Origin: an uncultured bacterium
GTDB lineage: Bacteria > Fidelibacterota > UBA2242
DNA: 64,000 nt
Direction of reading: 5' to 3'
Assembly (NCBI GenBank): GCA_964441235.1
Contig: CAYTUQ010000002.1
Coordinates: forward strand, 1,705 to 65,704
Shown: one piece after another, positions 10,916 to 43,122 of the stretch
Numbering within the stretch: position 1 is the first letter of the stretch
Layout: every line of letters begins with the position of its first letter
The notes under the pieces: generated by a model
Told to the model about the DNA's origin: nothing
Seen by the model: only the letters and a program-made list of their open reading frames with translations
Databases searched by the model: none
Made by a program: the position numbers and the translations under genes

Positions 10916-11520
10916 AGTATCCCGGCATATTCTCAATATCACCCTAAACAGTATTGAATATTGAATAATGAACAGGGAATAATGAATTTTGAAGTTTTTT
11001 AAAATTAAAAGTTGTATTCTGAATGATTTGCTCTTCTTTATTCGACGTTCGTTGTTCGATATTCATCATTCAAAAGCACATTTATAAAAATTTGTGCCAC
11101 TTCGACTTCGCTCGGAGACCCGTCTGTCGTCAGGGCATTCTTTGTGCCTCGTATACTAAAAGTGGTCTTATTCATGGGTAGAAGAGATTTTAAAAATCTG
11201 TATCTTATTCTCTTTGATTATTACTTCTTATTTAAGAACAAGTTGAAAATCCCAAGTTGTCGGGGGATCAACGATTTTAAATTTTAGATGTTATCCATTC
11301 TCCCTCCTGCTCACTTACTCACTTGACTTTTAGTATAGTATCTCGTGGCTAATAACATCTCAAATATATATTGTTAAAATCGTAAATTTTAAGTAATATT
11401 CAGAGCATTGAAAATTGATTTTCATCTCATGATAAAAACTATCAGAAGGGTTTGGATGAATTAAATTATTTAATCAGCCAATACTCTGAATAGATAAAAA
11501 GATTTTATTGGAAGACTGTT

Positions 11521-27090: not shown

Positions 27091-28551
27091 ATGAAAAAGT
27101 CTATTGTACCACTACTTGATTATATTCCAGAGAAAATGGAAAATGCATTTGCTGATTTTCAAAATAATTTTCCCTCTTTTAAAAGAACAAATTCCTTAGA
27201 CAACTTACGTAAGTTAGAATATTCTCGGTTAGACATTAATAACCAGATTTATCTTGATTACACTGGTGGTGGACAGTATGCCGATTTGCAACTCCGAAAG
27301 CATTTAGAGATATTGAGACAGGGCGTATTCGGTAATCCTCATTCTAATAATCCAAGTTCATTAGCATCAACAGCATTAGTACAGAAAGCTCGTTCCTGCG
27401 TACTTGAATTCTTCAACGCATCGCCCGATGAGTATGTGATAATTTTTACTACGAATGCTACCGGAGCAATTAAACTTGTAGCAGAATCCTATCCTTTTTC
27501 ATCAGGTAGTCAACTTCTAATGACTTTTGATAATCATAACTCCGTTAACGGTATTCGTGAGTATGCCCATGCTAAAAACTCTACGGTAAATTATGTACCC
27601 ATCACACCACCAGATTTGAGAGTAGATACGGATAAATTATTTGATTATTTTGAACGCTCCCAAAAAGACCATCATAATTTGTTTGTTTATCCCGCCCAAT
27701 CTAACTTTTCCGGTGTACAGCATCCGTTGGAATGGATTGCCATCGCACAGGATAAAGGTTGGGACGTTATTATAGATTCTGCGGCTTTTGCTCCTACAAA
27801 CCGTATTGACTTAAGTTTGTGGCATCCCGATTTTGTACCAATTTCTTTTTATAAAATGTTTGGATATCCGACTGGCGTGGGTTGTTTACTTGCTCGAAAA
27901 GAGAAATTGCATAAACTTAAGCGTCCCTGGTTTTCCGGAGGAACTATTACTATTTCTTCGGTACAGGGAGAAGGACATTACCTGGCAGAGGATGAAGTGG
28001 CTTTTGAGGATGGTACGGTTAATTACCTCAATCTGCCAGCCGTAGAAATAGGACTCAAGCATATAGCAATTATCGGAATAGAAATAATCCATGAACGTGT
28101 TAACTGTTTAGCAGATTGGCTGTTAAAACAATTATTGTCTTTACATCATAGTAATGGACTACCACTGATTCGGATTTATGGACCGACAGATATGAATATG
28201 CGTGGAGGAACAATTGCATTCAATTTCTATGATCCGCAGGAAAAACTTATCGATTACCGGCAAGTTGAAGCATTAGCCAATAGGGCAAATATTTCATTAC
28301 GTACCGGCTGTTTTTGCAATCCTGGTGTAAGCGAATCAATTCACGGTCTAACTGAAAATGAATTAAAAGATTGTTTCAAGAATAAAGAAAGAATGACATT
28401 CGAACAATTTATCACGGTGATACAGAAAATTGATGGAAAGAGCGCAGGTGCAATTCGTGTTTCGTTGGGTTTAGTAACAAACTTTCCGGATGTATATAGA
28501 TTCATGCAATTTGCCAAAGGTTTTCTGGATAAGCCAGCGGCAGAGACTTAA
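27091..28551 (+). CDS. Class V aminotransferase-fold PLP enzyme, NifS/Moco-sulfurase N-terminal-domain-like
   Basis: 486 aa. LDYTGGGQYADLQLRKHLEILRQGVFGNPHSNNPSS and SFYKMFGYPTGVGCLLARK (PLP-Lys context) resemble the NifS-like domain of molybdenum cofactor sulfurases. No MOSC domain follows. Confidence 0.6.
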   Translation: MKKSIVPLLDYIPEKMENAFADFQNNFPSFKRTNSLDNLRKLEYSRLDINNQIYLDYTGGGQYADLQLRKHLEILRQGVFGNPHSNNPSSLASTALVQKARSCVLEFFNASPDEYVIIFTTNATGAIKLVAESYPFSSGSQLLMTFDNHNSVNGIREYAHAKNSTVNYVPITPPDLRVDTDKLFDYFERSQKDHHNLFVYPAQSNFSGVQHPLEWIAIAQDKGWDVIIDSAAFAPTNRIDLSLWHPDFVPISFYKMFGYPTGVGCLLARKEKLHKLKRPWFSGGTITISSVQGEGHYLAEDEVAFEDGTVNYLNLPAVEIGLKHIAIIGIEIIHERVNCLADWLLKQLLSLHHSNGLPLIRIYGPTDMNMRGGTIAFNFYDPQEKLIDYRQVEALANRANISLRTGCFCNPGVSESIHGLTENELKDCFKNKERMTFEQFITVIQKIDGKSAGAIRVSLGLVTNFPDVYRFMQFAKGFLDKPAAET

Positions 28552-29752: not shown

Positions 29753-30211
29753 TTATTTTTTCTTCTTTTTAGGTTTTTTCTTGGGTTTATCGGAAGATTC
29801 ATTTACTGAATTATCTTCATGGGATTCGTCCTCCCAATCATCAATAATTGCGATGTTATCCCCAAAAATATTCCATGCATCTTCTTCATTCTCATTTTGA
29901 AGACTTTTTTCGCGTTCTAATTCCTCTTCAAATTCGTCCCAGACTTCCTTACGCTTTTCAAACTTAGACGGATCTATTTCAGGCTCATCATAATCTTCCA
30001 GTTCTTCCTTTAACATTTCATCTCCATATAGACTCATATCAAAGAAATCTATATCATCTACTATATCATAGAAAACGAGTAACTCGAGGAAATTTAAATA
30101 TTTGGGATTTCGTAAATTTTTCTTACAGTGTGGACAAATTAAAGATTTTTTTAATTGTTCTTCCGATAATGGCTGACCACATTCTGGGCAAGCTAAATCT
30201 TCCATTGTCAC
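29753..30211 (-). CDS. Zinc-ribbon protein with acidic middle and Lys-rich tail (hypothetical)
   Basis: CPECGQ...CPHCKK zinc ribbon, highly acidic central region, KPKKKPKKKKK C-terminus. Confidence 0.5.
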   Translation of the reverse strand: MTMEDLACPECGQPLSEEQLKKSLICPHCKKNLRNPKYLNFLELLVFYDIVDDIDFFDMSLYGDEMLKEELEDYDEPEIDPSKFEKRKEVWDEFEEELEREKSLQNENEEDAWNIFGDNIAIIDDWEDESHEDNSVNESSDKPKKKPKKKKK

Positions 30212-30395
30212 TCCTCAATAATTGCGGCGGTAAATATAAACTGTTAAGCCCAGTTGGTCAAGAGAAATTTTAGATTTTTTTAATATTTTATTTTATGTAA
30301 AAATATTACTCTTAAAACGCATGAAACGCTTATTTTAATTACCTTTTATAATAAAATTCATACAGAACTTTTATATTGTGTATTACTGAAATTTT

Positions 30396-30929
30396 TCAAG
30401 TATTATTCTCAGTCGTCTGTTTATGTATAGATGTTATCAGGCTCTTTATTTGGATGTACCCGGATTCAATGGAATTATCTTCCTTCTTGTCAATTTGCAT
30501 ATTAAAACAGAAATCGGAATAATCTGATTTAAAGCCGATTCGTAATTGTACATTGCTATTATTAACGAAATATGCTGTCGTTAAATTGAAATCAATATTT
30601 AAATCAGCTGCTGCAATATAATTGTACTGAAAAATTTCTTTTACCAGACTATCTGAGGGTAGCAGAGACCTGCCAATATCAGAATTTAAAACAGGTATAA
30701 AACGGTTTGGGTCAATATTCTTGATAATCGGAAAAAATGCCTGGTGAATTATTGCCTTTATTTTAATACTATGCTCATCTATTAATGGGAAAAATACACG
30801 CTGTGCAATTTTAAATGGTATCGTATCAAATGGTAAACAAATGAGTATATATTCCTCATCTGAAGAATGCTGTGGACTGAGATTTCCGGTGCCCAATAAT
30901 TTTTTAACAGTTCGCTTTGATGTACTCAA
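30396..30929 (-). CDS. Hypothetical protein
   Basis: 177-aa ORF with no recognisable motif. First gene-sized ORF of the accessory island. Confidence 0.4.
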   Translation of the reverse strand: MSTSKRTVKKLLGTGNLSPQHSSDEEYILICLPFDTIPFKIAQRVFFPLIDEHSIKIKAIIHQAFFPIIKNIDPNRFIPVLNSDIGRSLLPSDSLVKEIFQYNYIAAADLNIDFNLTTAYFVNNSNVQLRIGFKSDYSDFCFNMQIDKKEDNSIESGYIQIKSLITSIHKQTTENNT

Positions 30930-31150
30930 TTATATCTCAATATTTTATCCTTATATCAAAATGCCTTTTTTTATATGGTACGCCTATAAGTCGAAGGGAA
31001 CGATTTTAAAAGACCTTTTTTCTTATCACTCACTAAACATTCCTTATTTTTTATTGGGTGGAAAATAAGTTATTCAGATGAAAAACAAAAGATATTTTAA
31101 ACCTGCACAGTAATTCACCAAGTTATAGGTTTTGCTCGTACCACGAAGCT

Positions 31151-31178
31151 CTGCTTCGCAAGCATATTTGCGAAGCAG
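31151..31178. repeat. Perfect 11-bp-stem GC-rich palindrome
   Basis: CTGCTTCGCAA (31151-31161), loop GCATAT, TTGCGAAGCAG (31168-31178). Partially pairing flanks (GTACCACG / CGCGGTAC). Confidence 0.8.
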
Positions 31179-31408
31179 TACGTAGGACGCGGTACATTTA
31201 TCCGTTTTAGTAAGAAGATCAGAAGACACGTCTGTGCCCGTAACTGACTCATTACCTTGCAAAACCAGGATAATGTTATCACTCATCAAACTTGTTATAT
31301 TATCTTAGATGATAAATAACAAAAGTTTTTATAGAAATTTAATTTATTGTCTTTTTACTTATTATCTGTAATTTTGTTTTCTGTGAAGATTTAAATAGGG
31401 AAATAACG

Positions 31409-31860
31409 ATGAGCATTAAAATAAAAAAGTTCGGCACTTTTGAGGGAGTTTTGACTCTACGCTCCTTGCTACTCTATTTTATTTACGGCAATAATTATAG
31501 AACTAAGCCTGCTGGTTATTCCGTAAATGATATTGGAAAAATAGATTTCTCCAAATTACGTAATGTTACAATTGGTAGGATTTTTTCTGAATTAAATATA
31601 ATTGAGCAGTGGGGACGGGAATTTACAAATATTATTGAATCTTGTAGGCAATATAAAAATATCGTTCCGGAATTCAAAGAAGAATTATTGTAGTTTAAGA
31701 TTATTTTTTGGAATAAGAAAATAGATAAAAAAGTCGGAGATAAGCTCGGAGAAAAGGTGGTCAGAAAATCTTGCAAAAAGCTAAAAATATATTAGACTTA
31801 GTTAAAACAAATCCACATATTTCAAAAAGTGAACGCACTGCGTTCAGAATTGAGCTGGAC
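31409..31860 (+). pseudogene. Frameshifted C-terminal remnant of an AlbA_2/HATPase_c_4-type (RecG-like) putative transcriptional regulator
   Basis: GRIFSELNIIEQWGREFTNIIESCRQYKNIVPEFKEE resembles the conserved ...E.WG.GI..I...C......P.F segment. Downstream, in other frames, KVGDKLGEK... and QKILQKAKNILDLVKTNPHISKSE resemble the C-terminal wHTH. The N-terminal AlbA_2 part is absent. Confidence 0.45.
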
Positions 31861-32020
31861 GCATTATAGTCTATTGTTGAAGGTAGAAATTGATGTTGTT
31901 GACCATATTATTGCCACCAAAACTGAATATTTTAGTTTTAAAGATAGAAAATTATTGCAATGTTGCTGAAAGTTTAATATTTTCATTTACCTGTATAAAT
32001 TTATACAGGAATTATAAAAT

Positions 32021-32602
32021 ATGAAAAATATAAAGGCTATAGAAATCTTACAAAATTCAGGGAAGAAGATTTTCACCCTTTCTGAAATAAAGAATATTTT
32101 AGGCATTGAGAAAGATAATACAATCTACAAAAAAGTAGAATCTTTGATAAAAGATCGGATATTAAAAAGGGCAATTAAAGGAATCTATTATTTTACTTAT
32201 AATTCACCGTCAGATTTTGAATTAGCTAATCATCTTTATCAACCGTCTTATGTCTCTCTTACTTCGGCGTTAAATTTCCATGGAATTTTAGTCCAGGTGC
32301 CATATAAAATAACTTCTGTTACTCCTAAATTAACACGGGAAATTTATATTAACGAAAAGACCTTTAAATATTCTCATATCTCAAAAGATTATTTTTGGGG
32401 ATATCAAAAAGTAGAAGGATTTCTAATTGCAGAACCAGAAAAAGCATTTTTGGATGTTCTGTTCTTTATGAGCTTGGGGAGGATTATTATAAGTTACGAT
32501 GAACTTTTGTTAGATAGGATTGATTATGAAAAATTTTCAGAAATGACCAAAAAAATTAAAAACCCTAACTTTCACAGATTTTTAAAAAAATTAAAATTAT
32601 GA
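32021..32602 (+). CDS. AbiEi-family type IV TA antitoxin / transcriptional regulator
   Basis: 193 aa with an N-terminal wHTH-like region. Its stop overlaps the start of the AbiEii gene (ATGA). Size and position are typical of AbiEi. Confidence 0.65.
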   Translation: MKNIKAIEILQNSGKKIFTLSEIKNILGIEKDNTIYKKVESLIKDRILKRAIKGIYYFTYNSPSDFELANHLYQPSYVSLTSALNFHGILVQVPYKITSVTPKLTREIYINEKTFKYSHISKDYFWGYQKVEGFLIAEPEKAFLDVLFFMSLGRIIISYDELLLDRIDYEKFSEMTKKIKNPNFHRFLKKLKL

Positions 32603-33399
32603 TTACACCTGAACAGATTCAAGATTTATCAAAAAAAAAGAGGATAAATCAAGATACTATACTGCGAGAATATCTTCAACTTTTATTTTTGCAGAATCTT
32701 TATAGCGAAAAGTTGTCACAGAAAATTTATTTTAGAGGCGGAACAGCAATTCATTTGCTTTTAGGTTCTTCACGATTTTCAATGGATTTGGATTTTACTT
32801 CAGAAATTTCTACAACTTGTCTGGAAAAATTAATAAAAAAGATTGTTGATAGAATGAATTTGGAAATTCCAGATATCAGATTAAAATCATCAAGAAAAAG
32901 AATCAATCACTCATTTTCTAAGATTCTATCCTATTATCCAAAAGAGAAGAAATACCCTGTTAATATTGCAATTGATTTCTCTTTAAGAGAAAAACCTGTG
33001 AAAAAAACTCAAATAACAGTATTGAAAACTGATTTTCCAATAAGTGGTTTACCTGTAATTTCACATCTACATTGGCAGGAAATCTTAGCAGAAAAAATCA
33101 GGGCAATCTTGATTCGTGGAAAAGGAAGAGATTTATATGATATTTATTATTTGGTTATGAAAAATATCCGCCAGCTGGCAGATTGGGATGTGGTGAAAGA
33201 AAAAATGAAGATATATCCAGAAGTTGATATTGATACAAATATGAATACTCTTATTAGTAGAATTGAAAAATTGGGAAACAAAGAGCTTAAAAATGATTTA
33301 GCCCAGTTTTTACCTGATTCTGAAAGAAATTCTCTTTTGCCAATATTGAAAGACGAGTTAATTAAAGAACTTGAAAAATATAAACAAACACGAGGATGA
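32599..33399 (+). CDS. AbiEii/AbiGii-family nucleotidyltransferase toxin
   Basis: FRGGTAIHLLLGSSRFSMDLDF (GGTAL...R.S.DLDF signature) and GKGRDLYDIYYL are both typical of AbiEii. Confidence 0.8.
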   Translation: MITPEQIQDLSKKKRINQDTILREYLQLLFLQNLYSEKLSQKIYFRGGTAIHLLLGSSRFSMDLDFTSEISTTCLEKLIKKIVDRMNLEIPDIRLKSSRKRINHSFSKILSYYPKEKKYPVNIAIDFSLREKPVKKTQITVLKTDFPISGLPVISHLHWQEILAEKIRAILIRGKGRDLYDIYYLVMKNIRQLADWDVVKEKMKIYPEVDIDTNMNTLISRIEKLGNKELKNDLAQFLPDSERNSLLPILKDELIKELEKYKQTRG

Positions 33400-33490
33400 G
33401 TTTATAATTCGGTGAAAATTATGAACAAAAATAATTACCAAAATTGGACAAATGATGCTTATAATAATTAAATAGGACCATGAAATAGTT

Positions 33491-34216
33491 ATGGATGAAA
33501 AGAGTTGGATAAAAAATAGACCGGAGTATGAAAGACCTCGTGAAAAACTTTTGAAGTTTGGTTCTAAGAATCTTTCTAATTCGGAATTACTTGCTATCTT
33601 TCTTAGAATAGGTGTTAAAGACAAAAGTGCAATTCAACTTGCAGCAGAAATATTAGAAAAATTTGGTGGGATTAGAGGAATTTGTACTGCCAAAATAGAA
33701 GATTTACTTACAATAAAAGGATTGGGTATAGCAAAGATTGCTCAATTAAAAGCAACTTTAGAACTCGCTGAAAGGTATCTTAAAGAAGATGTTAAGCAAA
33801 AATCAATTGTAGAAAGCTCAAAGGAAGTTTTAAATTATCTTCATCATTCAATGCAAGATTTAGATCATGAATTAATGAAAGTAATCCTTTTGAATGGTCA
33901 AAATCAAATAATAAATATTGTAGATTTATTTAGAGGCTCTATAAGTTCATCAAGTGTTTATCCAAGGGAGATAATCAAATTGGCTCTTAAATATTCAGCT
34001 TTAGCAATTGTTATTGTTCATAATCATCCTTCTGGAATTTCAAAACCAAGCGAAGGTGATAAAAAACTTACAAAAGAAATTATTTTTGCATGTATTTCTA
34101 CAGGTATTAAAGTTCACGACCATATAATAATTGGCAATAAAAAGCATTATAGTTTTGCTGATGAGGGAATTATTGAAGTTTACGAAAAAGAATATGAAAA
34201 GAGGATGAAACTATGA
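33491..34216 (+). CDS. radC: RadC-family JAB-domain protein
   Basis: N-terminal PEYERPREKLLKFGSKNLSNSELLAIFLRIG, HhH region (IKGLGIAKIAQLKATLEL) and JAMM motif VHNHPSG...PSEGD. Confidence 0.9.
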   Translation: MDEKSWIKNRPEYERPREKLLKFGSKNLSNSELLAIFLRIGVKDKSAIQLAAEILEKFGGIRGICTAKIEDLLTIKGLGIAKIAQLKATLELAERYLKEDVKQKSIVESSKEVLNYLHHSMQDLDHELMKVILLNGQNQIINIVDLFRGSISSSSVYPREIIKLALKYSALAIVIVHNHPSGISKPSEGDKKLTKEIIFACISTGIKVHDHIIIGNKKHYSFADEGIIEVYEKEYEKRMKL

Positions 34217-36096
34217 GTCCAGTAAAATATCAAAGAGTGGATGAAATAGAAAAAAGGGGATATTTAAGAGATTATGCAACGGGAAAATGGGTTAGGTCAA
34301 GGCCCGAAGAAGGACCAAGACAAATATTTGAAAAAAGGTTAGTTGGAGAATATGGCTACGACAAAGGTCAAATTGAAATTGAGTTCTTAATACAAAAAGG
34401 AGCTAGAAAAATCGGTCCTGCTGATATAGTTGTTTTTCACGATTCAAAAAGAAAAACATTTGATAACATAAAAATAGTGGTTGAAACAAAGAGAAAAGAA
34501 AAAAATGATGGAAAAGATCAATTAAGATCTTATTCAATATCACCATCCCAAGAATTTGCAGTTTGGTTTAACGGAAAAGACATTCTATTTCTACAGGTTC
34601 TGAAAAAAGCACCATGGTTTAGAGAAATCCCAGATATTCCTAAAAAAGGTGAGACATTAGAAGATGTAGGGCTTTATTATAAGAAGGATTTAAAACCTGC
34701 AACAGAACTGAAAACTGTTTTTGAGATTTGTCACAATTATATTTATGCAAATGAGGGACTCTTGAAAGAGAAGGTATTTAATGAGGTGCTAAAACTAATT
34801 TTTATCAAAATGGCTGATGAAAAGAAATCAAATCCCAAATGTGAGTTTAGAATTACTGACAAAGAATTAAAAGAATTAGAAGAGGGCAAAGAAAATGCAT
34901 TTGTGAATAGGATTTTGAATCTTTTTAGTGAAGTAAAAACAAGATATAGTGATGTTTTTGAGAAAAATGAAAGAATATATCTAAGACCTTTAACAATTGC
35001 CTTTATTGTCAGTCAATTCCAAAAATATAGTTTGATTAACACTAAAGCAGATGTTAAAGGAACAGCATTTCAAACATTTGTTTATGCTCATCAAAGAGGA
35101 GAGAGAGGGGAGTTCTTTACACCACATCCAATTGTTGAATTAGCAGTAAATATGCTAAATCCAAAAGACAATGAAAGATTTATTGACCCTGCTTGTGGTT
35201 CTGGCGGTTTCCTTGTTAAAGGAATGAATTATATTAAAGAAAAATTTATTAAAGATAATCCTCATAGGATAACTGAAGCAGATAAATTTATAGGTGAATA
35301 TGCACATTCTTATGTTTCTGGAATTGATATTAATCCTGATTTGGCAAAAGTTGCAAAGATGCACATGATTTTGTATGATGATGGACACACGGGAATTTTT
35401 TCAGCGAATACTTTAGAGAGTTTTGATAATTTGGTAAAAACTGCACAAGAAATGGGAGTTCCAAGAGCAATACAACCAAGACCAAATACTTTTCAAGTTT
35501 TGATGACCAATCCACCTTTTGGGACAAAGGGAAAAGTAACGAATAAAAGAATCTTGGAAAACTTTGAACTTGGCCATAAATGGAAAAACGATAAAGAAAT
35601 AGGAGGATGGATAAAAACAAATAAAATCTTGGATGGGCAAGTTCCAGATATTTTATTCATTGAGAGATGTTTGCGGTTATTGGACAATCATGGTAGAATG
35701 GCAATTGTTTTGCCTGACGGTGATTTAACAAATCAAAATACAGAGCATATAAGAGAATTTATTAAACAAAAAGCAAGATTACTGGCAGTAGTTTCTATGC
35801 CTATTGGAACATTTATGCATGCTGGAGTTAATCCAAAAGCAAGTGTATTGTTTTTACAAAAATTGGATGAAGAAAAATTAGAAGAGTTGAATAGAAAAGA
35901 TTATCCCATCTTCATGGCCATTGCTGAGAGGATAGGCTATGATTTAACAAGTAAAACACCTAAAATACTTTACAAAAGAGATGAGAAGGGAGAGATAATT
36001 AAATATAAAGAAGGAAAACCAATTATTGAATCTGATATTCCAGAAATAATAGAAGCGTTTAACGGATTCAAAAGGAAATATAACTTGAGGTTTTAA
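34213..36096 (+). CDS. hsdM: Type I-like N6-adenine DNA methyltransferase (HsdM-like) with N-terminal PD-(D/E)xK-like (HsdR_N-type) domain
   Basis: Motif I IDPACGSGGFLV, motif IV LMTNPPFGTKG. The N-terminal ~130 aa carries GPADIVVF...IKIVVETKRK (D...E-x-K arrangement). Start overlaps the radC stop (ATGA). Confidence 0.85.
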   Translation: MSPVKYQRVDEIEKRGYLRDYATGKWVRSRPEEGPRQIFEKRLVGEYGYDKGQIEIEFLIQKGARKIGPADIVVFHDSKRKTFDNIKIVVETKRKEKNDGKDQLRSYSISPSQEFAVWFNGKDILFLQVLKKAPWFREIPDIPKKGETLEDVGLYYKKDLKPATELKTVFEICHNYIYANEGLLKEKVFNEVLKLIFIKMADEKKSNPKCEFRITDKELKELEEGKENAFVNRILNLFSEVKTRYSDVFEKNERIYLRPLTIAFIVSQFQKYSLINTKADVKGTAFQTFVYAHQRGERGEFFTPHPIVELAVNMLNPKDNERFIDPACGSGGFLVKGMNYIKEKFIKDNPHRITEADKFIGEYAHSYVSGIDINPDLAKVAKMHMILYDDGHTGIFSANTLESFDNLVKTAQEMGVPRAIQPRPNTFQVLMTNPPFGTKGKVTNKRILENFELGHKWKNDKEIGGWIKTNKILDGQVPDILFIERCLRLLDNHGRMAIVLPDGDLTNQNTEHIREFIKQKARLLAVVSMPIGTFMHAGVNPKASVLFLQKLDEEKLEELNRKDYPIFMAIAERIGYDLTSKTPKILYKRDEKGEIIKYKEGKPIIESDIPEIIEAFNGFKRKYNLRF

Positions 36097-37034
36097 TGAT
36101 GGAAAAAGAAAAAATGACTTTTGAGGATTTTTGGAATCATGAAACAGAATATTTTAAAGAAACGGCAAAAGAAAGTTTTAAAAAAAATAAACAGGGAGTT
36201 GAATATTTTATAGAATATCTCGATAATTATATAGATCTATTTGGCATAAACAAGTATTACCAAAAAGATGAAATAACAAATTCTATTTCTGCTATGTTTC
36301 TCTTTTACTCCTTTAAACAATTGCGATGGGTTAATCATGAGATTCTATCAGGTGCTTATTTTGAGGCAATCAGAGATTTAAGATTTGCATTTGAAACTAT
36401 TGTTTGGGCACATTTTTTAGATGAGTGGATTAACGAAAAAACAAAAGAATACCTAAAAGTAAGTATAGGAGCAGGAATATCTTTAAAATATGAGATTTTA
36501 AAGTTAAGAGATGAGATATATGATGTCAAAGGTTATAGAAAAAAGAAAAATGAAAGAGAGAAAATAGTTAAGGAAAATGTTGGCAAATTCATAAAAAAGC
36601 ATGCCCAAGATTTTACAAACGAAGAAACGTGGAAATATAAAGAACTTTATTTTGAAATCTTGAAGAACTTGGGAGTTGGATTTACTGGAAAAAATGGATT
36701 AATTGCTAAACTTCCCTTAGAAGAGGAAGATGAAAAGAAGTTGGACAAACTTTATTCAGAATTATCAAAATATATCCATCCATCAAACAGAATAATAAAA
36801 CCGTTTTATGAAGACGATATTGGTTTAATCTTTAATTTTTGCTATAATAAAATATTATTTAATAGCTGTATGAGGTTTCTTGTAGATGTTATGGACTTAT
36901 TTTATGCCATTCTTTACGTCCATTTTGAGAAACTTAGAGAAGTGATTAAAGAAAAAATTGTAGATTTTTGTAAGGTTAATTTTAATATGGAATTTCCGAT
37001 AACTGAAAAATTAATACGGGATGACCTAGTATGA
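36096..37034 (+). CDS. Hypothetical all-alpha protein inserted between hsdM and hsdS
   Basis: 312 aa. Start overlaps the hsdM stop (TAATG) and the stop overlaps the hsdS start (ATGA). No catalytic motif recognised. RDLRFAFETIVWAHFL and LSKYIHPSN faintly recall HEPN/AbiV-like helical proteins. Confidence 0.6.
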   Translation: MMEKEKMTFEDFWNHETEYFKETAKESFKKNKQGVEYFIEYLDNYIDLFGINKYYQKDEITNSISAMFLFYSFKQLRWVNHEILSGAYFEAIRDLRFAFETIVWAHFLDEWINEKTKEYLKVSIGAGISLKYEILKLRDEIYDVKGYRKKKNEREKIVKENVGKFIKKHAQDFTNEETWKYKELYFEILKNLGVGFTGKNGLIAKLPLEEEDEKKLDKLYSELSKYIHPSNRIIKPFYEDDIGLIFNFCYNKILFNSCMRFLVDVMDLFYAILYVHFEKLREVIKEKIVDFCKVNFNMEFPITEKLIRDDLV

Positions 37035-39439
37035 TAATTTCAGAAGCAAAATTTTCAGAAGCTTATACCAAACTAAGATTTGATGCTGAATATTTTAAAA
37101 CAGAATTCATTGAAACACGATATAGATTAGAAAAAATTAATGCATCCAAACTTACTTCTATTGCTGAAATATCAAAATTAAGGAGGGATCCTACAAAAGA
37201 ATCGGATAAAGAATTTATATACATTGATATAAGCAATATTGATACATCTGTTGCTGATGTCAGTACACAGAAAATAATAGGTTATAAAGCACCAACAAGA
37301 GCGAGAAAATTAGTTCAAACAGGAGATGTTATAGTATCTACTGTACGACCGAATAGAAATGCCGTCGCAATTATACCAAAAGAATTAGATAATAGCGTTT
37401 GTTCTACAGGCTTTTGTGTTTTAAAACCGACGGAAGTAAATTTGCATTATTTGTTTGTTTTCTTAAAAACAAAATATGCAATAAATCAACTAGTAAGAGA
37501 AACTATGGCTTCTATGTATCCCGCAGTTAGTGAAGATCAAATTAAAAAGATATTGGTGTTTTTACCATCTTTTGAATTCCAGTTTCACGTAGAAAAACTC
37601 GTCAAAGAAGCATTTTCAAAACGAAAACTTGCTGATGAAAAATACAAACAAGCAAAACAACTTTTAGAAAAAGAATTAGGACTTGATAAATTAAAATTAA
37701 AAGAAGAAAAAACATTTGAAGCAAAATCATCAGAACTATTTGGAAGTAGAAGATTTGATTCTGAGTACTACAAGCCGAAGTGCAAACAAATCATAAGGTT
37801 TCTTAAAAATTCTGGGTTTGAAGTAAAGAAATTAAAAGAGATTGTAAAAATTTCAAATAAGAAAATTGACCCAACAAAGGAGCCAACCAAAAGGTTTAGA
37901 TATGTTCCAATAGCAAAGATAAATTCAAATGGAGAAATTGATGAGTGGGATGAATTTAATGGTTGGCAGGCACCAAGCAGGGCAAGAATGCTTATTAAAA
38001 AAGGGGATGTTTTAGTCTCATCATTAGGTGGTTCGCTTAACAAAATAGCATTAGTTCCTGAAGAATTAAATAATTCAATTGCTACAACAGGAACCTTTGT
38101 CATCAATTCTGAAAACTTTTATAGTGAATTCTTATTTTTATTATTCAGAACAGAACTAATCAAATTGCAGTTGGAGCGGAAAACAGCAGGTGCAATAATG
38201 ACTGCTGTTCCTAAAACAACTTTTGGAAATTTACTAATTCCAATTATTCCAAAACAAAAGCAAGAAAATATTGCAAAATTAATAAACCAATCTTTTACTT
38301 TGAGAAAAGAAGCAAAACAACTTTTAGAAGAGGCAAAAGAAAAGGTGGAAAGTATGATAGAAAATCCTTTAGAAATCTCTGAAACCCAACCCGTTCTCCG
38401 TAGTCCTGATAAAATTGGGACGAAGGGTGAACCTGAGATTATTATCCCTTTTCCTATTCCTTCAAAATTAATAAGCCTTAAACCGCCTGTCAAAGTAAAA
38501 TATAAAGATTACCAAATGCTTGATGGTTCAATAAAGAAATTGGTTCAACAAATAGGAGATGGTTCAATCATTAAAAGATTTGAAAAAACACCAATACCTA
38601 AAAGTAAAATAGATGTAGTTTGTCCTCATTTTCTTGAATTAAAATGGGCAACAGGATGTCCTTATGATTGTTCCTGGTGCTATCTGAAAGGAACTTTTAG
38701 ATTCTTGCCGTATAAAGCGAAACCACATATTAAGGATTTTGATAAGATAGAAAAACATACAAAGACATTTTTGGAATATGTTCAAACTCCTGAAGTATTA
38801 AATACAGGTGAGCTGGCAGACTCACTAATGCTTGAAGTAAAGAATAAATCATTTGTTAAGTTTATTGTTCCACTTTTTGAAAACCAAAATAAGCATAAGA
38901 TTCTCTTTTTGAGTAAATCAAACAAAATAGAAAATCTTTTATTACTTAATACACATCGTCAGGTTATAGTAAGTTTTAGTCTTAATGCTATTCCTGTGGC
39001 ACAAAGATGGGAAAAGAAAGCACCTTCAGTTGAAGACCGCATAAAAGCAGCAGGGATTCTATACAAACAACGATTTGAAGTAAGGATAAGGATAGACCCA
39101 ATGATCCCTGTGGAAAACTGGGAGCAACTTTATACTGATTTAATAGACCGCATATTTAATTCGTTTATACCTGAAAGAATTACTTTAGGTTCTCTTAGAG
39201 GATTACAGAGTACTATCAATGGAACATCAGATAAGTCCTGGGTAAAATATCTATCTGAACGCTCAAACTGGGGAAGAAAAATAGATATTAATTTAAGGCT
39301 TGCTATGTACAAAACAATTATCTCTTATTTAAATGAAAAGTATAAATATAATAAGGTCGCTCTTTGCAAAGAAACTTTGGCAATTTGGGATATACTAAAT
39401 ACGAATTATAAAAATATAAAATGTAATTGTGTGTGGTAG
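37031..39439 (+). CDS. hsdS: Type I restriction-modification specificity subunit (two TRDs) fused to a C-terminal radical-SAM-type (CX3CX2C) domain
   Basis: - aa 1-~440: two TRDs (RFDAEYF...STGFCVLKP...; RFDSEYY...TTGTFVINS...) separated and followed by the conserved S-subunit coiled-coil spacers (EKYKQAKQLLEKEL; EAKQLLEEAKEKVESMIEN).
- aa ~440-500: Pro-rich linker.
- aa ~500-802: VVCPHFLELKWATGCPYDCSWCYLKG (CX3CX2C), then an alternating beta/alpha pattern (ILFLSKSN, VIVSFSLN, RIRIDPMIP) reminiscent of SPL/COG1533-type radical SAM enzymes. Confidence 0.75.
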   Translation: MIISEAKFSEAYTKLRFDAEYFKTEFIETRYRLEKINASKLTSIAEISKLRRDPTKESDKEFIYIDISNIDTSVADVSTQKIIGYKAPTRARKLVQTGDVIVSTVRPNRNAVAIIPKELDNSVCSTGFCVLKPTEVNLHYLFVFLKTKYAINQLVRETMASMYPAVSEDQIKKILVFLPSFEFQFHVEKLVKEAFSKRKLADEKYKQAKQLLEKELGLDKLKLKEEKTFEAKSSELFGSRRFDSEYYKPKCKQIIRFLKNSGFEVKKLKEIVKISNKKIDPTKEPTKRFRYVPIAKINSNGEIDEWDEFNGWQAPSRARMLIKKGDVLVSSLGGSLNKIALVPEELNNSIATTGTFVINSENFYSEFLFLLFRTELIKLQLERKTAGAIMTAVPKTTFGNLLIPIIPKQKQENIAKLINQSFTLRKEAKQLLEEAKEKVESMIENPLEISETQPVLRSPDKIGTKGEPEIIIPFPIPSKLISLKPPVKVKYKDYQMLDGSIKKLVQQIGDGSIIKRFEKTPIPKSKIDVVCPHFLELKWATGCPYDCSWCYLKGTFRFLPYKAKPHIKDFDKIEKHTKTFLEYVQTPEVLNTGELADSLMLEVKNKSFVKFIVPLFENQNKHKILFLSKSNKIENLLLLNTHRQVIVSFSLNAIPVAQRWEKKAPSVEDRIKAAGILYKQRFEVRIRIDPMIPVENWEQLYTDLIDRIFNSFIPERITLGSLRGLQSTINGTSDKSWVKYLSERSNWGRKIDINLRLAMYKTIISYLNEKYKYNKVALCKETLAIWDILNTNYKNIKCNCVW

Positions 39440-39451
39440 AAAGGAAAGATT

Positions 39452-40549
39452 ATGTCTATTAAAGAAACAATATGGAAGATTGAACTGCACACACAGGCAA
39501 AGCATGAAATACTAAAGCGGTATCTTCAAGCGTGGCTTCCAATAATGAGTACTGTTAGTGGGCGTATTTTGTATATTGATGGCTTTGCAGGTCCAGGAAA
39601 GTATTTAGACGAAAATAATCAGCCAACTATTGATGGCTCTCCACTTGTGGCTATGAATGCAGCAATAAAGCACAAGTTACCGCTAAAGGCGGAGATAGTA
39701 TTTCTTTTAATTGAAGCAGACCCTAAAAGATTTGACTATCTTAAAAATTTGCTTTCAGAAATAACTTTTGCAGATAGTATGAAATATAAAGTAGTATGTA
39801 GTAAATTTGATGAAACTCTTACATCTATTCTAAACGACTTTGATGAGCAGAAGAAACAATTAGCTCCAACTTTTGCATTCATTGACCCATTTGGATATTC
39901 CGATACACCTCTTGCAGTTGTTAAACGAATAATGGAGAGCCCAAAGTGTGAGGTCCTTATTACATTTATGTATAGTTTTATAAAAAGAGCTATTGTCAAA
40001 CTCGACCAAGAAGATCATCTAGACATTCTTTTTGGTACCCAAGAATGGAGAAAAATTCGAGATATTGGTTATCCTTCAAAGAAACGAGAATTTGCCCAGC
40101 AACTTTATAAAAAACAATTGGAAAAGGAAGCCAATATAAAATATGTGCGTTTTTTTGAGATGATTAATAAGTTCAATCAAACTGAATATTTTTTATTTTT
40201 CGGAACTAATAGTCTTGAAGGACTTAGATATATGAATTCGTCAATGTGGAAAGTTGATCCGAGTGGAACATTTCAATTTTCTGATAGAACAAATCCTAAT
40301 CAAACAGTGCTCTTTACTCTAGAGCCTAACTATAACTTACTTAAAAGATTAATTGTCAGAGAATATAAAGGTAAAACGGTCTCAGTTGAAGAAGTTGATG
40401 AATTTGTATTAGTGGCTGGTTTCACTCATTTCAAAAAGAATATTTTGGAACCTATGGAAAGAGCAAAACCTGCTCAGATAGAAGTGATTAAGAGTAATAG
40501 GAAGAGAAGATATACTTATCCACCAAGAACTATAATTAAATTTTTGTAA
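39452..40549 (+). CDS. TcmP-like (three-Cys-motif partner protein family) protein, possible RlmJ-like methyltransferase fold
   Basis: 365 aa, 12 nt after the fusion gene and preceded by AAAGGAAAG. HTQAKHEILKRYLQAWLPIM, RILYIDGFAGPGKY, DGSPLVAMNA and FAFIDPFGYSD match my recollection of TcmP (TIGR04474) N-terminal halves. The same motif order occurs in RlmJ-type methyltransferases. Confidence 0.5.
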   Translation: MSIKETIWKIELHTQAKHEILKRYLQAWLPIMSTVSGRILYIDGFAGPGKYLDENNQPTIDGSPLVAMNAAIKHKLPLKAEIVFLLIEADPKRFDYLKNLLSEITFADSMKYKVVCSKFDETLTSILNDFDEQKKQLAPTFAFIDPFGYSDTPLAVVKRIMESPKCEVLITFMYSFIKRAIVKLDQEDHLDILFGTQEWRKIRDIGYPSKKREFAQQLYKKQLEKEANIKYVRFFEMINKFNQTEYFLFFGTNSLEGLRYMNSSMWKVDPSGTFQFSDRTNPNQTVLFTLEPNYNLLKRLIVREYKGKTVSVEEVDEFVLVAGFTHFKKNILEPMERAKPAQIEVIKSNRKRRYTYPPRTIIKFL

Positions 40550-40643
40550 AAGAATTTAAAACATATTTTGATACAAAAATTAAATTTAATATCAGGTCAG
40601 TTTTAAAGTGAAATGCTAAATAAAAATTAAGGTGAGGAATAGG

Positions 40644-40922
40644 ATGAAGAAAAATCAGAAAACTGGCTACCAATATGAAAAATCTCAAGCAAAAAAACAC
40701 CGAGGTAAACATCTTGGTGGCCCAGGAAAACCGGATTATCAAAGAGGTAAAATTAAGGGTGAAGTAAAAGACTGGAAACATCCCGTACATAGCGGAGTAA
40801 TTAAAAAAGCCATAAAAAATGGTGTAAAAGAAGTTGTAAGTAAAAGTGGTTTCACAAAACCAGCTATACAATTGGCTAAAAAGAAAAATATAAAATTTAT
40901 AAGACGAGGAAAAAAAGTTTAG
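40644..40922 (+). CDS. Mini restriction-endonuclease-like (Mrr_cat / PD-(D/E)xK) protein
   Basis: ATG at 40644 follows AAGGTGAGG. 92 aa. GYQYEKSQAKKHRGKHLGGPGKPDYQRGKIKGEVKDWKHPVHSGVIKK...VVSKSGFTKPAIQLAKKKNIKFI follows the Mrr-catalytic-domain order (G..yE...D...E-x-K...sGFT..A...A). Confidence 0.5.
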   Translation: MKKNQKTGYQYEKSQAKKHRGKHLGGPGKPDYQRGKIKGEVKDWKHPVHSGVIKKAIKNGVKEVVSKSGFTKPAIQLAKKKNIKFIRRGKKV

Positions 40923-41087
40923 AAAAAAATATAATTCTCCTATTCAGTCATTATAAATAAGATAAAAAATTTCTTATTTATAATGCAAATTTATTAGAAG
41001 CAATTGTTACTAAAAATCTTATTATTATGAAAAAAACATAGACATTTAGAGATTTGCCGATATAAGAGCAATAAATAGCATAAATGC

Positions 41088-41168
41088 AAAAGAAAAGCAA
41101 AATAGCTTTTTGAAGAAGCAAAAAGAAAAATTGAGAAGATGATTTTAAGATCATCTACAAGAAAATGA
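41088..41168 (+). pseudogene. Remnant of an hsdS 3' end (conserved C-terminal coiled-coil), copy 1
   Basis: ...KRKAK*LFEEAKRKIEKMILRSSTRK* aligns at nucleotide level with the intact RKEAKQLLEEAKEKVESMIEN region (38304-38366). The CAA codon is replaced by TAG. Confidence 0.65.
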
Positions 41169-41524
41169 CTTTATTTATAGAGAACAAAATGAATAGAGAT
41201 AAAAATATCAGAAAAATAATTTCAAGAATGGTAGAGAAAATCAAAACTGAATATCAACCAGAAAGGATAGTTCTCTTTGGTTCTTATTCTTGGGGAAAGC
41301 CAACAAGGGATAGTGATGTAGATTTACTTATTATTAAAAAGACAAATGAAAGACATTTAGAGAGAGCAATTAGGGTTAGAGAAATTGTTGATAAAGAAAA
41401 CCGAATGGTTCCACTAGATATTGTGGTATATACTCCACAAGAGCTCAAACAGAGATTGAAAGCAAGAGATTGTTTTATAAAAACAATATTAACAAAAGGA
41501 GATGTAGTTTATGAACAAGAATGA
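41165..41524 (+). CDS. MNT-type nucleotidyltransferase (type VII TA antitoxin-like)
   Basis: RIVLFGSYSWGKPTRDSDVDLLI is the minimal nucleotidyltransferase GS...D.D motif. Overlaps the downstream HEPN gene by 14 nt. An alternative ATG lies at 41189. Confidence 0.85.
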   Translation: MTLFIENKMNRDKNIRKIISRMVEKIKTEYQPERIVLFGSYSWGKPTRDSDVDLLIIKKTNERHLERAIRVREIVDKENRMVPLDIVVYTPQELKQRLKARDCFIKTILTKGDVVYEQE

Positions 41525-41894
41525 AGCATTTAGATGGTTCAAACGAGCTCAAAAAGATATTGAAGATGCAGAATTCCTCTTGAAAGAAAGCCGAACTTTA
41601 GAAAATGTAGCACTCCTTATTCAACAAGCAATTGAAAAATATCTCAAAGGATTCATAATATATCATGATTGGGAATTGGAGAAAATCCATGATTTGATAA
41701 CGCTTATTAACTATGCGAGTAAAATTGACAAATCCTTTGAGAAGTTTGTTCCTTCTCTCAGAATTATCACTAATTTCTATTTTGAAAGCCGCTATCCTAT
41801 TACCTATGAACCAGATTATACAAAAGAAGAAATAAGAGAATCTCTTAAAGAAGCAAAGAAACTTATTGCTCTAATTAAAGAAAAAGTAAAATAA
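41511..41894 (+). CDS. HEPN-domain protein (type VII TA toxin-like)
   Basis: 127 aa, all-alpha. A..D...A..L...........QQAIEKYLKGF...H.L and a FESRYP motif typical of HEPN partners of MNT. Confidence 0.8.
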   Translation: MNKNEAFRWFKRAQKDIEDAEFLLKESRTLENVALLIQQAIEKYLKGFIIYHDWELEKIHDLITLINYASKIDKSFEKFVPSLRIITNFYFESRYPITYEPDYTKEEIRESLKEAKKLIALIKEKVK

Positions 41895-42008
41895 TGCTTT
41901 GATTACTTGTTCAATCCCCTGAAGCAACAAGAAGCAAAGCAACTCTTAGAAGAAGCAAAAAGAAAAGTTGAGAAGATAATGGATAGAGAAAGTGATAAAA
42001 ACAGGTAG
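41895..42008 (+). pseudogene. Remnant of an hsdS 3' end, copy 2
   Basis: Immediately after the HEPN stop: CFDYLFNPLKQQEAKQLLEEAKRKVEKIMDRESDKNR*. The EAKQLLEEAK.KVE..M core is nearly identical to the intact hsdS spacer at 38304-38366. Confidence 0.7.
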
Positions 42009-42013
42009 GAAAA

Positions 42014-43051
42014 ATGTTTAAACCCAAATTTACATACACAAATAAAATTGTAAGGTTGCTTACCAGAATATCTGCAGCGAGAGAGATAATTCTTAATTCG
42101 CCTTTGATCCCGGGGTGGAATGTTACATTAAGGCAGGAAGCAATAATCCACAGTGCTCATTCGTCCACGCGTATTGAGGGAAATAGATTATCATTGGAAC
42201 AAGTAAGCGAATTATCTCTTGGAAGAGAAGTAATGGCGACTCGAAGAGATAAACAGGAAGTTTTGAACTATCTGAATGTGCTAAAAAATATTGATAAGCT
42301 GATAAAAGGAAATTCTATAAGTGAGAAAGATATCTTAAATATTCACCGTATGGTAACAGAAGACACATTAGACAATTCTAATGATTGTGGGGTTTATCGT
42401 AACCGTTATGTTGTGGTTGGAAATAGATTTACAGGGGAGATTTTCTTTAAGCCACCGCAAAATGAGGATGTTCCCGGGTTAATAGAAGATTTGATTGAAT
42501 GGATAAACTCTGAGGAATCAAAATCACTCGAGCCTGTTATTGAAGCGGGTATTGAGCATTATGAATTTGTCAGAATTCATCCTTTTGTTGATGGTAATGG
42601 GAGAACTGCAAGAGTTCTGGCAACTTTGATTCTCTACATGCGAGATTTCGACACAAAACAATTTTTTTGCCTTGATGATTATTACGATTCTGATAGACAA
42701 GCATACTATTTAGCATTACAAAGTGTTAAACAAGACACATTAGACCTGACAAACTGGTTGGAATATTTTGTCGAGGGAGTAAGTGTAAGCACTGAGGCTG
42801 TCAAAGAAAGAGTGATAAGGTTAAGTAGTGAGAGACTGAGAAGATCAAAAGGCGGGCAAATAGCTTTAACCGAAAGACAGATAAGAATTGTGGAATTTAT
42901 TAATAAAAATGGTAAAATAACTAATAGAGATGTACGGGGAATGTTTAAACTTTCGGATGAAGGTGCATTGAGAGAGATTAAAAAACTAATGGTGTTGAAA
43001 GTTATTCAAAGCCAGGGTAAAGGGAGAGGGTTGCATTATGTCCTTAAATAA
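42014..43051 (+). CDS. Fic-family protein (AMPylase-type) with C-terminal wHTH
   Basis: HPFVDGNGRTARVLATL is the Fic motif HxFx(D/E)GNGRxxR. Fic_N-like N-terminus (STRIEGN). C-terminal LTERQIRIVEFINKNGKITNRDV is a wHTH. Confidence 0.9.
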   Translation: MFKPKFTYTNKIVRLLTRISAAREIILNSPLIPGWNVTLRQEAIIHSAHSSTRIEGNRLSLEQVSELSLGREVMATRRDKQEVLNYLNVLKNIDKLIKGNSISEKDILNIHRMVTEDTLDNSNDCGVYRNRYVVVGNRFTGEIFFKPPQNEDVPGLIEDLIEWINSEESKSLEPVIEAGIEHYEFVRIHPFVDGNGRTARVLATLILYMRDFDTKQFFCLDDYYDSDRQAYYLALQSVKQDTLDLTNWLEYFVEGVSVSTEAVKERVIRLSSERLRRSKGGQIALTERQIRIVEFINKNGKITNRDVRGMFKLSDEGALREIKKLMVLKVIQSQGKGRGLHYVLK

Positions 43052-43122
43052 GGTTGGCGATTAGGTTGGCGATTAGGTTGGCGATTAGGTTGATGATTAG
43101 GTTGATGATTAGGTTGATGATT
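43052..43122. repeat. 12-bp tandem repeat, 6 units (AGGTTGGCGATT x3, AGGTTGATGATT x3)
   Basis: Read directly. The array starts at the Fic stop codon. Confidence 0.95.

Follow-up and report, generated by a model that had tools for sequence, protein, structure and literature searches.

What does a radical S-adenosylmethionine (SAM) enzyme do at the end of a protein whose other half selects DNA sequences? The question is raised by a locus from an uncultured bacterium (Fidelibacterota; UBA2242), contained in a 64,000-nucleotide stretch of contig CAYTUQ010000002.1 (assembly GCA_964441235.1, positions 1,705 to 65,704) that is called here the window. At this locus, an 802-amino acid (aa) protein joins an HsdS-type specificity subunit (S) to a radical-SAM domain. 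A first-pass annotation had placed the protein in an operon of five tightly packed genes and proposed that the operon directs radical chemistry to defined DNA sequences. The five co-oriented open reading frames (ORFs) were confirmed, along with a radC gene upstream, all on the plus strand, and the gene junctions proved right base by base. The radC and methyltransferase (MTase) genes meet in an ATGA at 34213; a TAATG (36094-36098) connects the MTase gene to that of a 312-aa protein, and a second ATGA (37031) connects the latter to the 802-aa ORF. The ATG of tcmP (39452) follows a 12-nt gap with a Shine-Dalgarno sequence, GAAAGGAAAG, while the ATG of the last ORF, of 92 aa (40644), is preceded by a 94-nt gap containing AAGGTGAGG.

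The HsdS portion of the 802-aa protein comprises aa 1-445 (37031..38365). Pfam model PF01420 matches it in two stretches, and PADLOC models Specificity_I and mad5 give values of 5.3e-45 and 2.4e-41. The identity of this half to stand-alone HsdS proteins of about 448 aa reaches 68%. A linker of about 38 aa, ENPLEISETQPVLRSPDKIGTKGEPEIIIPFPIPSKLIS (38366..38479), leads into the C-terminal domain, aa 484-802 (38480..39439), where a CX3CX2C cluster motif, CPYDCSWC (38657-38680), lies in a partial TIM-barrel fold typical of the radical-SAM superfamily. The domain scores 57.4 bits with the spore photoproduct lyase (SPL) model PF20903, whose cut-off is 27. The general Radical_SAM model, PF04055, falls below its gathering score (20.8 versus 29.5), so that the assignment rests on the SPL model and the fold search. 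The first-pass description of the protein, an HsdS with two target recognition domains (TRDs) followed by a radical-SAM domain, is thus borne out.

The possibility that the fusion results from a sequencing or assembly artefact, or from the accidental loss of a stop codon, had to be considered. The junction DNA contains no stop or frameshift, and the identical 802-aa ORF recurs, always within the same operon, in JGI, NCBI and Logan assemblies of at least five samples (18 contigs); an interruption near 38.37 kb, which the first-pass annotation had seen as a threat to its proposal, is thereby excluded. Mining for similar fusions, suggested in the same annotation, yielded at least four further divergent variants. 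Two are full-length (P0122, 800 aa, and P0123, 807 aa; 55-58% identity) and two others, P0146 (Ca. Aerophobetes) and P0156, are cut short by contig ends, yet both extend past HsdS and the linker to the beginning of the radical-SAM domain. P0123 shares the linker of the window; those of P0122, P0146 and P0156 are shorter or differ. TRD1 is common to P0121, P0122, P0146 and P0156 while TRD2 differs, a pattern of classic TRD reassortment.

Comparison of the window (33491-40549) with a syntenic locus, L006 (7527-13540), revealed a mosaic. RadC (96%) and the linker plus radical-SAM domain (92% in protein, 91% in DNA) are conserved between the two, as are the AbiEi (95%) and AbiEii (88%) proteins encoded nearby, whereas the MTase (37%), the TRDs (25-29%) and TcmP (67%) have diverged. 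These identities imply recombination breakpoints within hsdS, where the conserved C-terminal helix is encoded, and at the boundary of the radical-SAM and tcmP sequences. The MTase and TRD specificity core has been exchanged within a conserved frame, and the in-frame junction between S and radical SAM has survived. An artefact or a stop-codon accident is excluded by the 18 identical contigs, the four variants and the survival of the junction through the swap. The fusion is genuine, is kept by selection and evolves like a working specificity subunit.

The fold of the radical-SAM family is by far closest to SPL among solved structures, at about 14% identity. The SPL equivalog models are missed by a wide margin (71-73.1 bits versus 400 for TIGR04070; 33-36 versus 437 for TIGR03886). 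An alignment of 28 homologues from different phyla and domains has a mean column identity of 67% and an invariant CPxDCxWCY. The Tyr following the third cluster Cys (SPL Tyr98/99) is kept, within CSWCYL, and there are additional invariant Cys residues at C531 (CPHF) and in a C-terminal CKE...CNC. A genuine SPL repair gene was excluded since the scores fall far short of the equivalog cut-offs, the hosts are non-sporulating and the catalytic Cys is absent. PADLOC returned no match for the radical-SAM domain even at E ≤1. In the RadicalSAM.org classification, SPL and DUF5131 are sister subgroups, Megacluster-5-3 and Megacluster-5-2 (PMC9477430).

The product of the gene downstream, tcmP (39452..40549; 365 aa), matches TIGR04474 at 218.9 bits (cut-off 53) over model positions 2-262 of 263, which substantiates its earlier designation as TcmP-like. 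It also matches the PADLOC defence candidate PDC-M30A (3e-60); the PDC-M30 candidate is not complete here, component A being matched and the radical-SAM domain having no PADLOC model. An AlphaFold2 model of TcmP (predicted local distance difference test, pLDDT, 87.5; predicted template modelling score, pTM, 0.85) has a class I SAM-MTase fold with a C-terminal winged helix-turn-helix (wHTH). The segments D43-G-F-x-G-P-G49, E88 and D145-P-F-G148, invariant in 44 TcmP sequences, occupy the sites of motifs I, II and IV of N6-adenine MTases. They presumably resemble the motifs of RlmJ itself. No sequence-level match to RlmJ or to any PDB chain was obtained, profile searches at E ≤10 included. Judging from the model, TcmP has an RlmJ-like (N6-adenine) SAM-MTase fold with intact motifs. 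Its Cys-motif partner is encoded immediately upstream and is SPL-like rather than a member of DUF5131 (Gp37/Gp68), which we take to be the canonical TcmP partner family. One TcmP originates from a cultured organism, Methanobacterium formicicum (P0298).

How widespread is the combination of the two enzymes? The radical-SAM domain is represented by 2019 homologues, most of them free-standing proteins of about 330 aa (58-81% identity), and TcmP by roughly 2,700; for the pair the figure is about 2,000-2,700. A scan of one genome per species gave 194 loci; pairing was counted in the best 80 with domain-restricted hidden Markov models for radical SAM and TcmP. Nearly all of the 80 loci are labelled as metagenome-assembled genomes or uncultured isolates and belong to anaerobic bacteria and archaea, with hosts including Zixibacteria, Dehalococcoidia, Omnitrophota, Nitrospirota, ANME-1 and Methanoperedens. 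No cultured or plasmid-borne representative of the pair was found. TcmP lies adjacent to the radical-SAM enzyme in 33 loci and is fused to its N-terminus in 27, that is, in 60 of the 80 (75%) the two are together; TcmP::radical-SAM fusions number 31 among 90 ORFs. This pairing makes TcmP the obligate partner of the radical-SAM enzyme. Searches of viral and plasmid sequences gave four close matches to the cassette family in 2.9 million IMG/VR contigs and none among INPHARED phages or PLSDB plasmids. The IMG/VR contigs L096-L098 carry tandem SPL-like radical-SAM paralogues (321 and about 370 aa; at about 8885-12160 in L096) followed by TcmP on the opposite strand, an arrangement not seen among the genome loci.

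The pair is found directly downstream of adenine MTases of several restriction-modification (R-M) types: type I/IIB-like M+S, type IIG-like proteins of 900-1388 aa and type III Mod+Res. With crude ORF calls, and control positions taken from the same contigs, a MTase is encoded at 17 of the 342 positions up to three genes away from the cassette and at 2 of the 302 positions five genes or more away (odds ratio 7.8, p=0.0016); in nine loci the MTase is at position -1. Where S is present, three topologies occur: S next to the radical-SAM enzyme, S next to a TcmP::radical-SAM fusion, and S::radical SAM next to TcmP. The cassette is also found alone between housekeeping genes (MtnA/MTAP, RecA-RecX/AlaS, MnmA/AsmA, YidC/MnmE), a situation more easily reconciled with a non-toxic activity, modifying or editing, than with a nuclease-like toxin. 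Radical SAM and TcmP form an independent mobile cassette. Since the cassette also stands alone or beside other types of R-M system, fusion to S is one route of recruitment and not the defining feature.

A number of recurrent neighbours were noted in this survey. Clusters C2, C3, C8, C21, C27-29, C39, C90 and C93 were considered as system components and rejected, being housekeeping flanks (MtnA, MTAP, AlaS, AsmA, RecA, CinA, RecX, MnmA, MnmE and YidC). In the Dehalococcoidia/Chloroflexota loci L033, L034, L038, L041, L043, L044, L052, L055, L066 and L068 the cassette lies just downstream of MtnA; a MTase of about 900 aa is present in some of them and absent in others, and MTAP (a PNP_UDP_1 phosphorylase) follows the cassette in most, though not in L041, L043 and L052. 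MtnA is methylthioribose-1-phosphate isomerase, and MtnA and MTAP salvage methylthioadenosine (MTA) as well as 5'-deoxyadenosine, a by-product of radical-SAM enzymes. The neighbourhood could reflect a functional link or a mere insertion hot-spot. In L001/L011 (6256-12148), L090 and L074 the cassette has an alternative set of partners. One, of about 525 aa, contains HATPase_c_3, another, of about 382 aa, is a radical-SAM protein with B12 binding, and the third, of about 315 aa, has no annotation; PADLOC gave no match for any of them. In L065, L069 (about 10958-11413) and L023, from Ignavibacteria/Coatesbacteria, the cassette adjoins a TrmO_N-domain protein of about 150-165 aa. TrmO carries out N6-methylation of N6-threonylcarbamoyladenosine (t6A) in transfer RNA (tRNA); the echo of an N6-adenine theme may be a coincidence.

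To which class does the R-M unit itself belong? The 627-aa product of 34213..36096 is, as first annotated, a gamma-class N6-adenine MTase with DPACGSGGF and NPPFG motifs (N6_Mtase, PF02384, 1.3e-34). It carries at its N-terminus a PD-(D/E)xK nuclease-like domain (HSDR_N_2, 1.8e-16, aa 31-143), and its best sequence match among solved structures is RM.BsaXI (8w0p, 9.1e-25; limited to the helical and MTase region), ahead of HsdM proteins, of which those of StySJI and EcoKI are among the PDB matches. BsaXI is a type IIB (RM)2S enzyme (PMC11997821). The nuclease motif, D71...E91-x-K93, is kept in seven of eight type I-like MTases compared, L037 being the exception, and six of the seven that have it adjoin members of the SPL-like radical-SAM family. 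A helicase/translocase (HsdR, ResIII) was not found among ten scanned ORFs out of the twelve of at least 400 aa in the window (eight window ORFs and two of the operon, the remaining two lying at 27091-28551 and 49005-50213), nor was HsdR found in the syntenic loci L006 and L007. In the initial view of the operon as an HsdR-less type I system, HsdM, the two-TRD HsdS with its conserved helices and the lack of HsdR stood up to scrutiny; with an RM-type subunit resembling BsaXI, the unit is better described as type IIB-like. Its S-like two-TRD protein carries an extra 357 aa. Because the PD-(D/E)xK domain is conserved and resembles the arrangement in type IIB BsaXI, the RM subunit likely has its own restriction arm.

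The radC gene (33491..34216; 241 aa) encodes a RadC-like JAB domain protein (PF04002, 5.9e-40; PF20582, 1.1e-27). The closest stand-alone HsdS genes reside in RadC-RM-[insert]-S units devoid of radical SAM and TcmP (L103, L105), which identifies RadC as part of the R-M unit and the cassette as an add-on; in L009, a RadC-RM-[insert]-S unit is separated from an SPL-like gene by a two-gene insert. Defence genes are found within or beside these related units (L009, 11753-13464; L103, 3762-4652; L105, 853-2526) and comprise AAA_15/21 ATPase plus DUF4276, AbiJ_NTD4/Abi_C, an OLD-family ATPase-TOPRIM and DUF1016/YhcG. The interval between M and S seems to be an insertion hot-spot, and AbiJ/Abi_C or DUF1016 hold in other loci the position that the 312-aa gene (36096..37034) holds in the window.

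The 312-aa protein and the 92-aa protein (40644..40922) had originally been counted as parts of the system, a view that does not withstand comparison with other loci. The former has no match in Pfam, NCBIfam or PADLOC, and its gene is absent from L006, L007 and all other loci examined, being confined to its own lineage. Its family has 93 representatives in 1.84 billion proteins, mostly of 230-320 aa, in which Y88, R93 and R96 are invariant and G86, E100, H228 and D267 nearly so; among 32 members scanned, the only match was a weak one to DUF5677, in a single member, and a PDB profile search gave no identification. A few members are fused to HEAT repeats or to a cupin domain. Similarity to the 315-aa neighbour in L001 was looked for and not found. 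The 92-aa basic protein had been called Mrr_cat-like. It scores 17 bits with PF04471 (E 0.0064), under the gathering threshold of 21 and with no individually significant stretch, while a PD-(D/E)xK-like pattern, D-x7-E-x-K (GKPDY...GEVKDW), can be made out by eye; the protein is an optional accessory, possibly a mini-nuclease. Its gene occurs only in the window's lineage and in L006 and L007, where an in-frame stop interrupts it, and it bears no similarity to the 89-aa ORF of L002. Both genes are lineage-specific accessories and, in the reading favoured below, dispensable passengers.

The operon lies in an island of low G+C content (window 30000-43100; 27-31%, versus 35-39% in the flanks) composed of toxin-antitoxin and defence genes: AbiEi (32021-32602), AbiEii (32599-33399), MNT (41165-41524), HEPN (41511-41894) and Fic (42014-43051). 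The AbiE and RadC frame recurs in L006 and L007. A 94-aa ORF at 31409-31693 matches HATPase_c_4 and is apparently what is left of a 449-aa SLFN_AlbA_2/HATPase_c_4/HTH gene, which is intact at the same position in L006 and L007 and is found near the cassette in several loci (cluster C7). Promoter and terminator scans scored no better than with shuffled sequence. Directly 3' of the 92-aa ORF, at 40950-40984, an AT-rich inverted repeat (ATTATAAATAAGA ... TCTTATTTATAAT) may be the operon terminator; it is not flagged by the consensus scan because it lacks G+C pairs. Elsewhere in the window, an 839-aa radical-SAM protein (Radical_SAM_N2, Radical_SAM and DUF2344; 11521-14040) is encoded by a gene that an RNase E/G gene (14063-15616) follows directly. 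The protein is unrelated to the operon and looks like a housekeeping protein.

What, then, might the fused enzyme do? In type I and type IIB systems, S recognises a bipartite DNA target and brings to it two RM subunits, which flip the target adenines and methylate them at N6. The locus is a type IIB-like unit (RadC, RM, S) that has captured the cassette by fusion of the radical-SAM half to the C-terminus of S. S would place two RM subunits on the bipartite target, whose adenines would become N6-methylated (m6A), and the linker of about 38 aa would tether the radical-SAM domain and its bound TcmP to the same DNA site. TcmP might then engage a flipped base through its intact SAM site and motif IV-like DPFG, while the radical-SAM enzyme would generate a 5'-deoxyadenosyl radical and abstract a hydrogen from the flipped base or its methyl group. 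Adenine/m6A within or next to the sequence that the R-M unit recognises would be edited or gain a second covalent modification, and the nuclease domain of the RM subunit would act as the restricting arm. We tentatively favour this reading, in which a radical mechanism modifies or edits DNA at targeted sites with adenine/m6A at the centre, because of the MTase partners of several R-M types, the SAM site of TcmP and a radical-SAM fold shared with an enzyme that flips DNA bases. More generally, the cassette could represent a new class of DNA-acting pair performing oxygen-independent radical chemistry (hypermodification or demethylation) on double-stranded DNA adenine/m6A and recruited by R-M systems to bipartite sites, an idea that is plausible if still short of probable.

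Several observations speak against this reading. The chemistry is wholly conjectural, and we know of no product, substrate or phenotype for any member of the cassette. SPL, the only characterised relative, repairs DNA rather than modifying it, and its mechanism cannot be copied onto the present family because the hydrogen-donor Cys (Cys140/141) is missing, RFEAACTSDIV being replaced by an invariant NTGE[LI]ADSLM. The relationship of TcmP to RlmJ is structural only (15-17% identity), and RlmJ acts on ribosomal RNA (rRNA), so that by analogy an RNA substrate would be possible. In 20 of the 80 radical-SAM loci TcmP is not detectable, ten of these having full flanks. Finally, the RadC, RM and S genes occur together without the cassette, and the need for a second protective mark in a unit that already has a MTase is not obvious.

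The standing of SPL as sole characterised homologue and closest relative, a DNA repair lyase, invites a different interpretation, namely that the cassette is an anaerobic repair enzyme or eraser in which TcmP serves as a base-flipping reader and the SPL-like enzyme uses a radical reaction to remove or reverse an adduct derived from a methyl group. Such an adduct might be a methylene cross-link, or adenine methylation that is aberrant or unwanted, and the pair would be an oxygen-independent counterpart of AlkB-type demethylation. Like Vsr with Dcm, it could limit the collateral damage of a MTase or reset methylation after a change of specificity, and fusion to S would direct repair to the R-M system's own sites. 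Nearly all hosts are uncultured anaerobes, in which oxygen-dependent demethylases cannot work; the mean column identity of 67% resembles that of housekeeping repair enzymes; some cassettes stand without any MTase, and swapping of TRDs and M cores creates situations in which a reset of methylation would help. Some cassettes also lie in recA-recX neighbourhoods or between genes for MTA/5'-deoxyadenosine salvage, but recA/recX, alaS, mnmE and mtnA belong to conserved housekeeping clusters that may be simple insertion sites. The idea is further weakened by the fully conserved SAM-binding MTase site of TcmP, which a mere reader would not need, by the absence of the SPL catalytic Cys and by a patchy, island-borne, horizontally spread and R-M-enriched distribution unlike that of core repair genes. 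We hold it to be rather unlikely. The location of the window's copy in a low-G+C island of defence and toxin-antitoxin genes with AbiE, MNT-HEPN and Fic, together with the match of TcmP to PDC-M30A, raises another prospect: the cassette might be the killing arm of restriction or abortive infection, recruited by S or other R-M proteins to unmodified foreign DNA, or switched on when a phage anti-restriction protein blocks the R-M complex, and damaging nucleic acid (DNA sugar or base or, in view of the RlmJ-like partner, rRNA/tRNA) by hydrogen abstraction. Abi-type genes (AbiJ/Abi_C, OLD, DUF1016) are common inside M-S operons, and the association with several R-M types is what one might expect of a shared accessory effector. 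Viperins provide a precedent for radical-SAM enzymes in defence. Ophion provides another (bioRxiv 10.1101/2025.09.30.679545). Yet many cassettes stand alone among housekeeping genes, accompanied neither by a MTase nor by an immunity or sensor gene, the R-M partners mostly carry nuclease domains already, conservation is far above what is usual for arms-race effectors, and TcmP looks like a transferase and not a sensor; such a role appears unlikely.

A last alternative denies any functional coupling: the cassette would modify an unrelated RNA or small molecule, R-M islands being its landing sites and the S fusion a tolerated read-through. The enzyme structurally nearest to TcmP, RlmJ, methylates rRNA, genes for tRNA modification (MnmA, TrmO, MnmE) flank several cassettes, and R-M units without cassette exist, as do cassettes without R-M. 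Nonetheless, the frame has been kept in at least five fusion variants despite replacement of TRDs and M core, and MTases occupy position -1 far above chance. The fold, moreover, is specifically that of the sole DNA-acting radical-SAM enzyme among solved structures, and splitting the partners into S::radical SAM plus TcmP would be costly if DNA binding by S were irrelevant. The odds of this alternative seem slim.

The locus is of interest for tying a large, uncharacterised pair of enzymes to a programmable DNA-recognition module, which probably delivers the pair to defined DNA sites. The pair thereby gains a hypothesis for its substrate, DNA at a bipartite motif, which could be read from the m6A pattern. 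If the cassette does represent a new class of DNA-acting pair, no earlier radical-SAM enzyme is known whose action on DNA is programmed by sequence, and R-M self-marking in anaerobes would gain a second, non-methyl layer. A new modification, or anaerobic demethylation, would amount to a new DNA mark or eraser, would explain what serves strict anaerobes in place of AlkB-type oxygenases, and would open the way to TRD-programmable delivery of radical chemistry to DNA; should the cassette be an effector instead, it would define a new restriction mechanism. There is a substantial chance that the chemistry of the cassette is categorically new.

Comparison with known systems helps to delimit what is unusual. 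The type IIB enzymes BsaXI and BcgI likewise have a nuclease domain N-terminal to a gamma-class MTase, a separate two-TRD S and no HsdR; the unit in the window differs in an S that continues into a radical-SAM enzyme and in a radC gene upstream in translational coupling, and its cleavage activity is predicted only. The MTase aligns nearly end to end with the NCBIfam model of MAD2 (476 bits) and the S half resembles MAD5 (134 bits), but these scores are far below the equivalog cut-offs of 720 and 400, and no MADS model other than mad2 and mad5 matches the operon proteins in NCBIfam or PADLOC. To our knowledge MADS includes neither a radical-SAM nor a TcmP component, and MADS was excluded on the cut-offs and the missing components. 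With regard to the pairs of TcmP and three-Cys-motif proteins (TIGR04474; PDC-M30), the TcmP of the window is a family member, whereas its partner belongs to the SPL/DUF5131 branch, is SPL-like (PF20903), lacks a PADLOC model and is fused to HsdS. The radical-SAM family differs from SplB in its low identity (about 14%), the lack of Cys140 and the extra invariant Cys, in its hosts, which are non-sporulating sediment anaerobes and archaea, and in its partnership with TcmP. RlmJ, the 23S rRNA m6A2030 methyltransferase, differs from TcmP in having DPPY instead of DPFG as motif IV and no additional C-terminal wHTH, and the genomic context of TcmP is DNA-related.

Accessory enzymes welded to R-M or MTase genes are exemplified by Vsr with Dcm, a repair enzyme, and by PrrC in EcoprrI, a back-up defence. 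Both are analogous to the cassette and to the 312-aa insert between M and S; neither has a sequence or fold relationship to the window genes, and neither is covalently fused to a specificity subunit. We know of no R-M specificity subunit, type I or IIB, that carries a catalytic domain and, SPL repair excepted, of no radical-SAM enzyme that acts directly on DNA. Viperins are radical-SAM enzymes acting in defence and are unrelated to the HsdS::radical-SAM locus. So is Ophion, a defence system pairing radical SAM with PHP and phosphoribosyltransferase (PRTase) (bioRxiv 10.1101/2025.09.30.679545). The searched literature gave no description of the HsdS::radical-SAM architecture or of the association of the cassette with R-M systems, in line with the first-pass impression of novelty. 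The component families have each been catalogued already.

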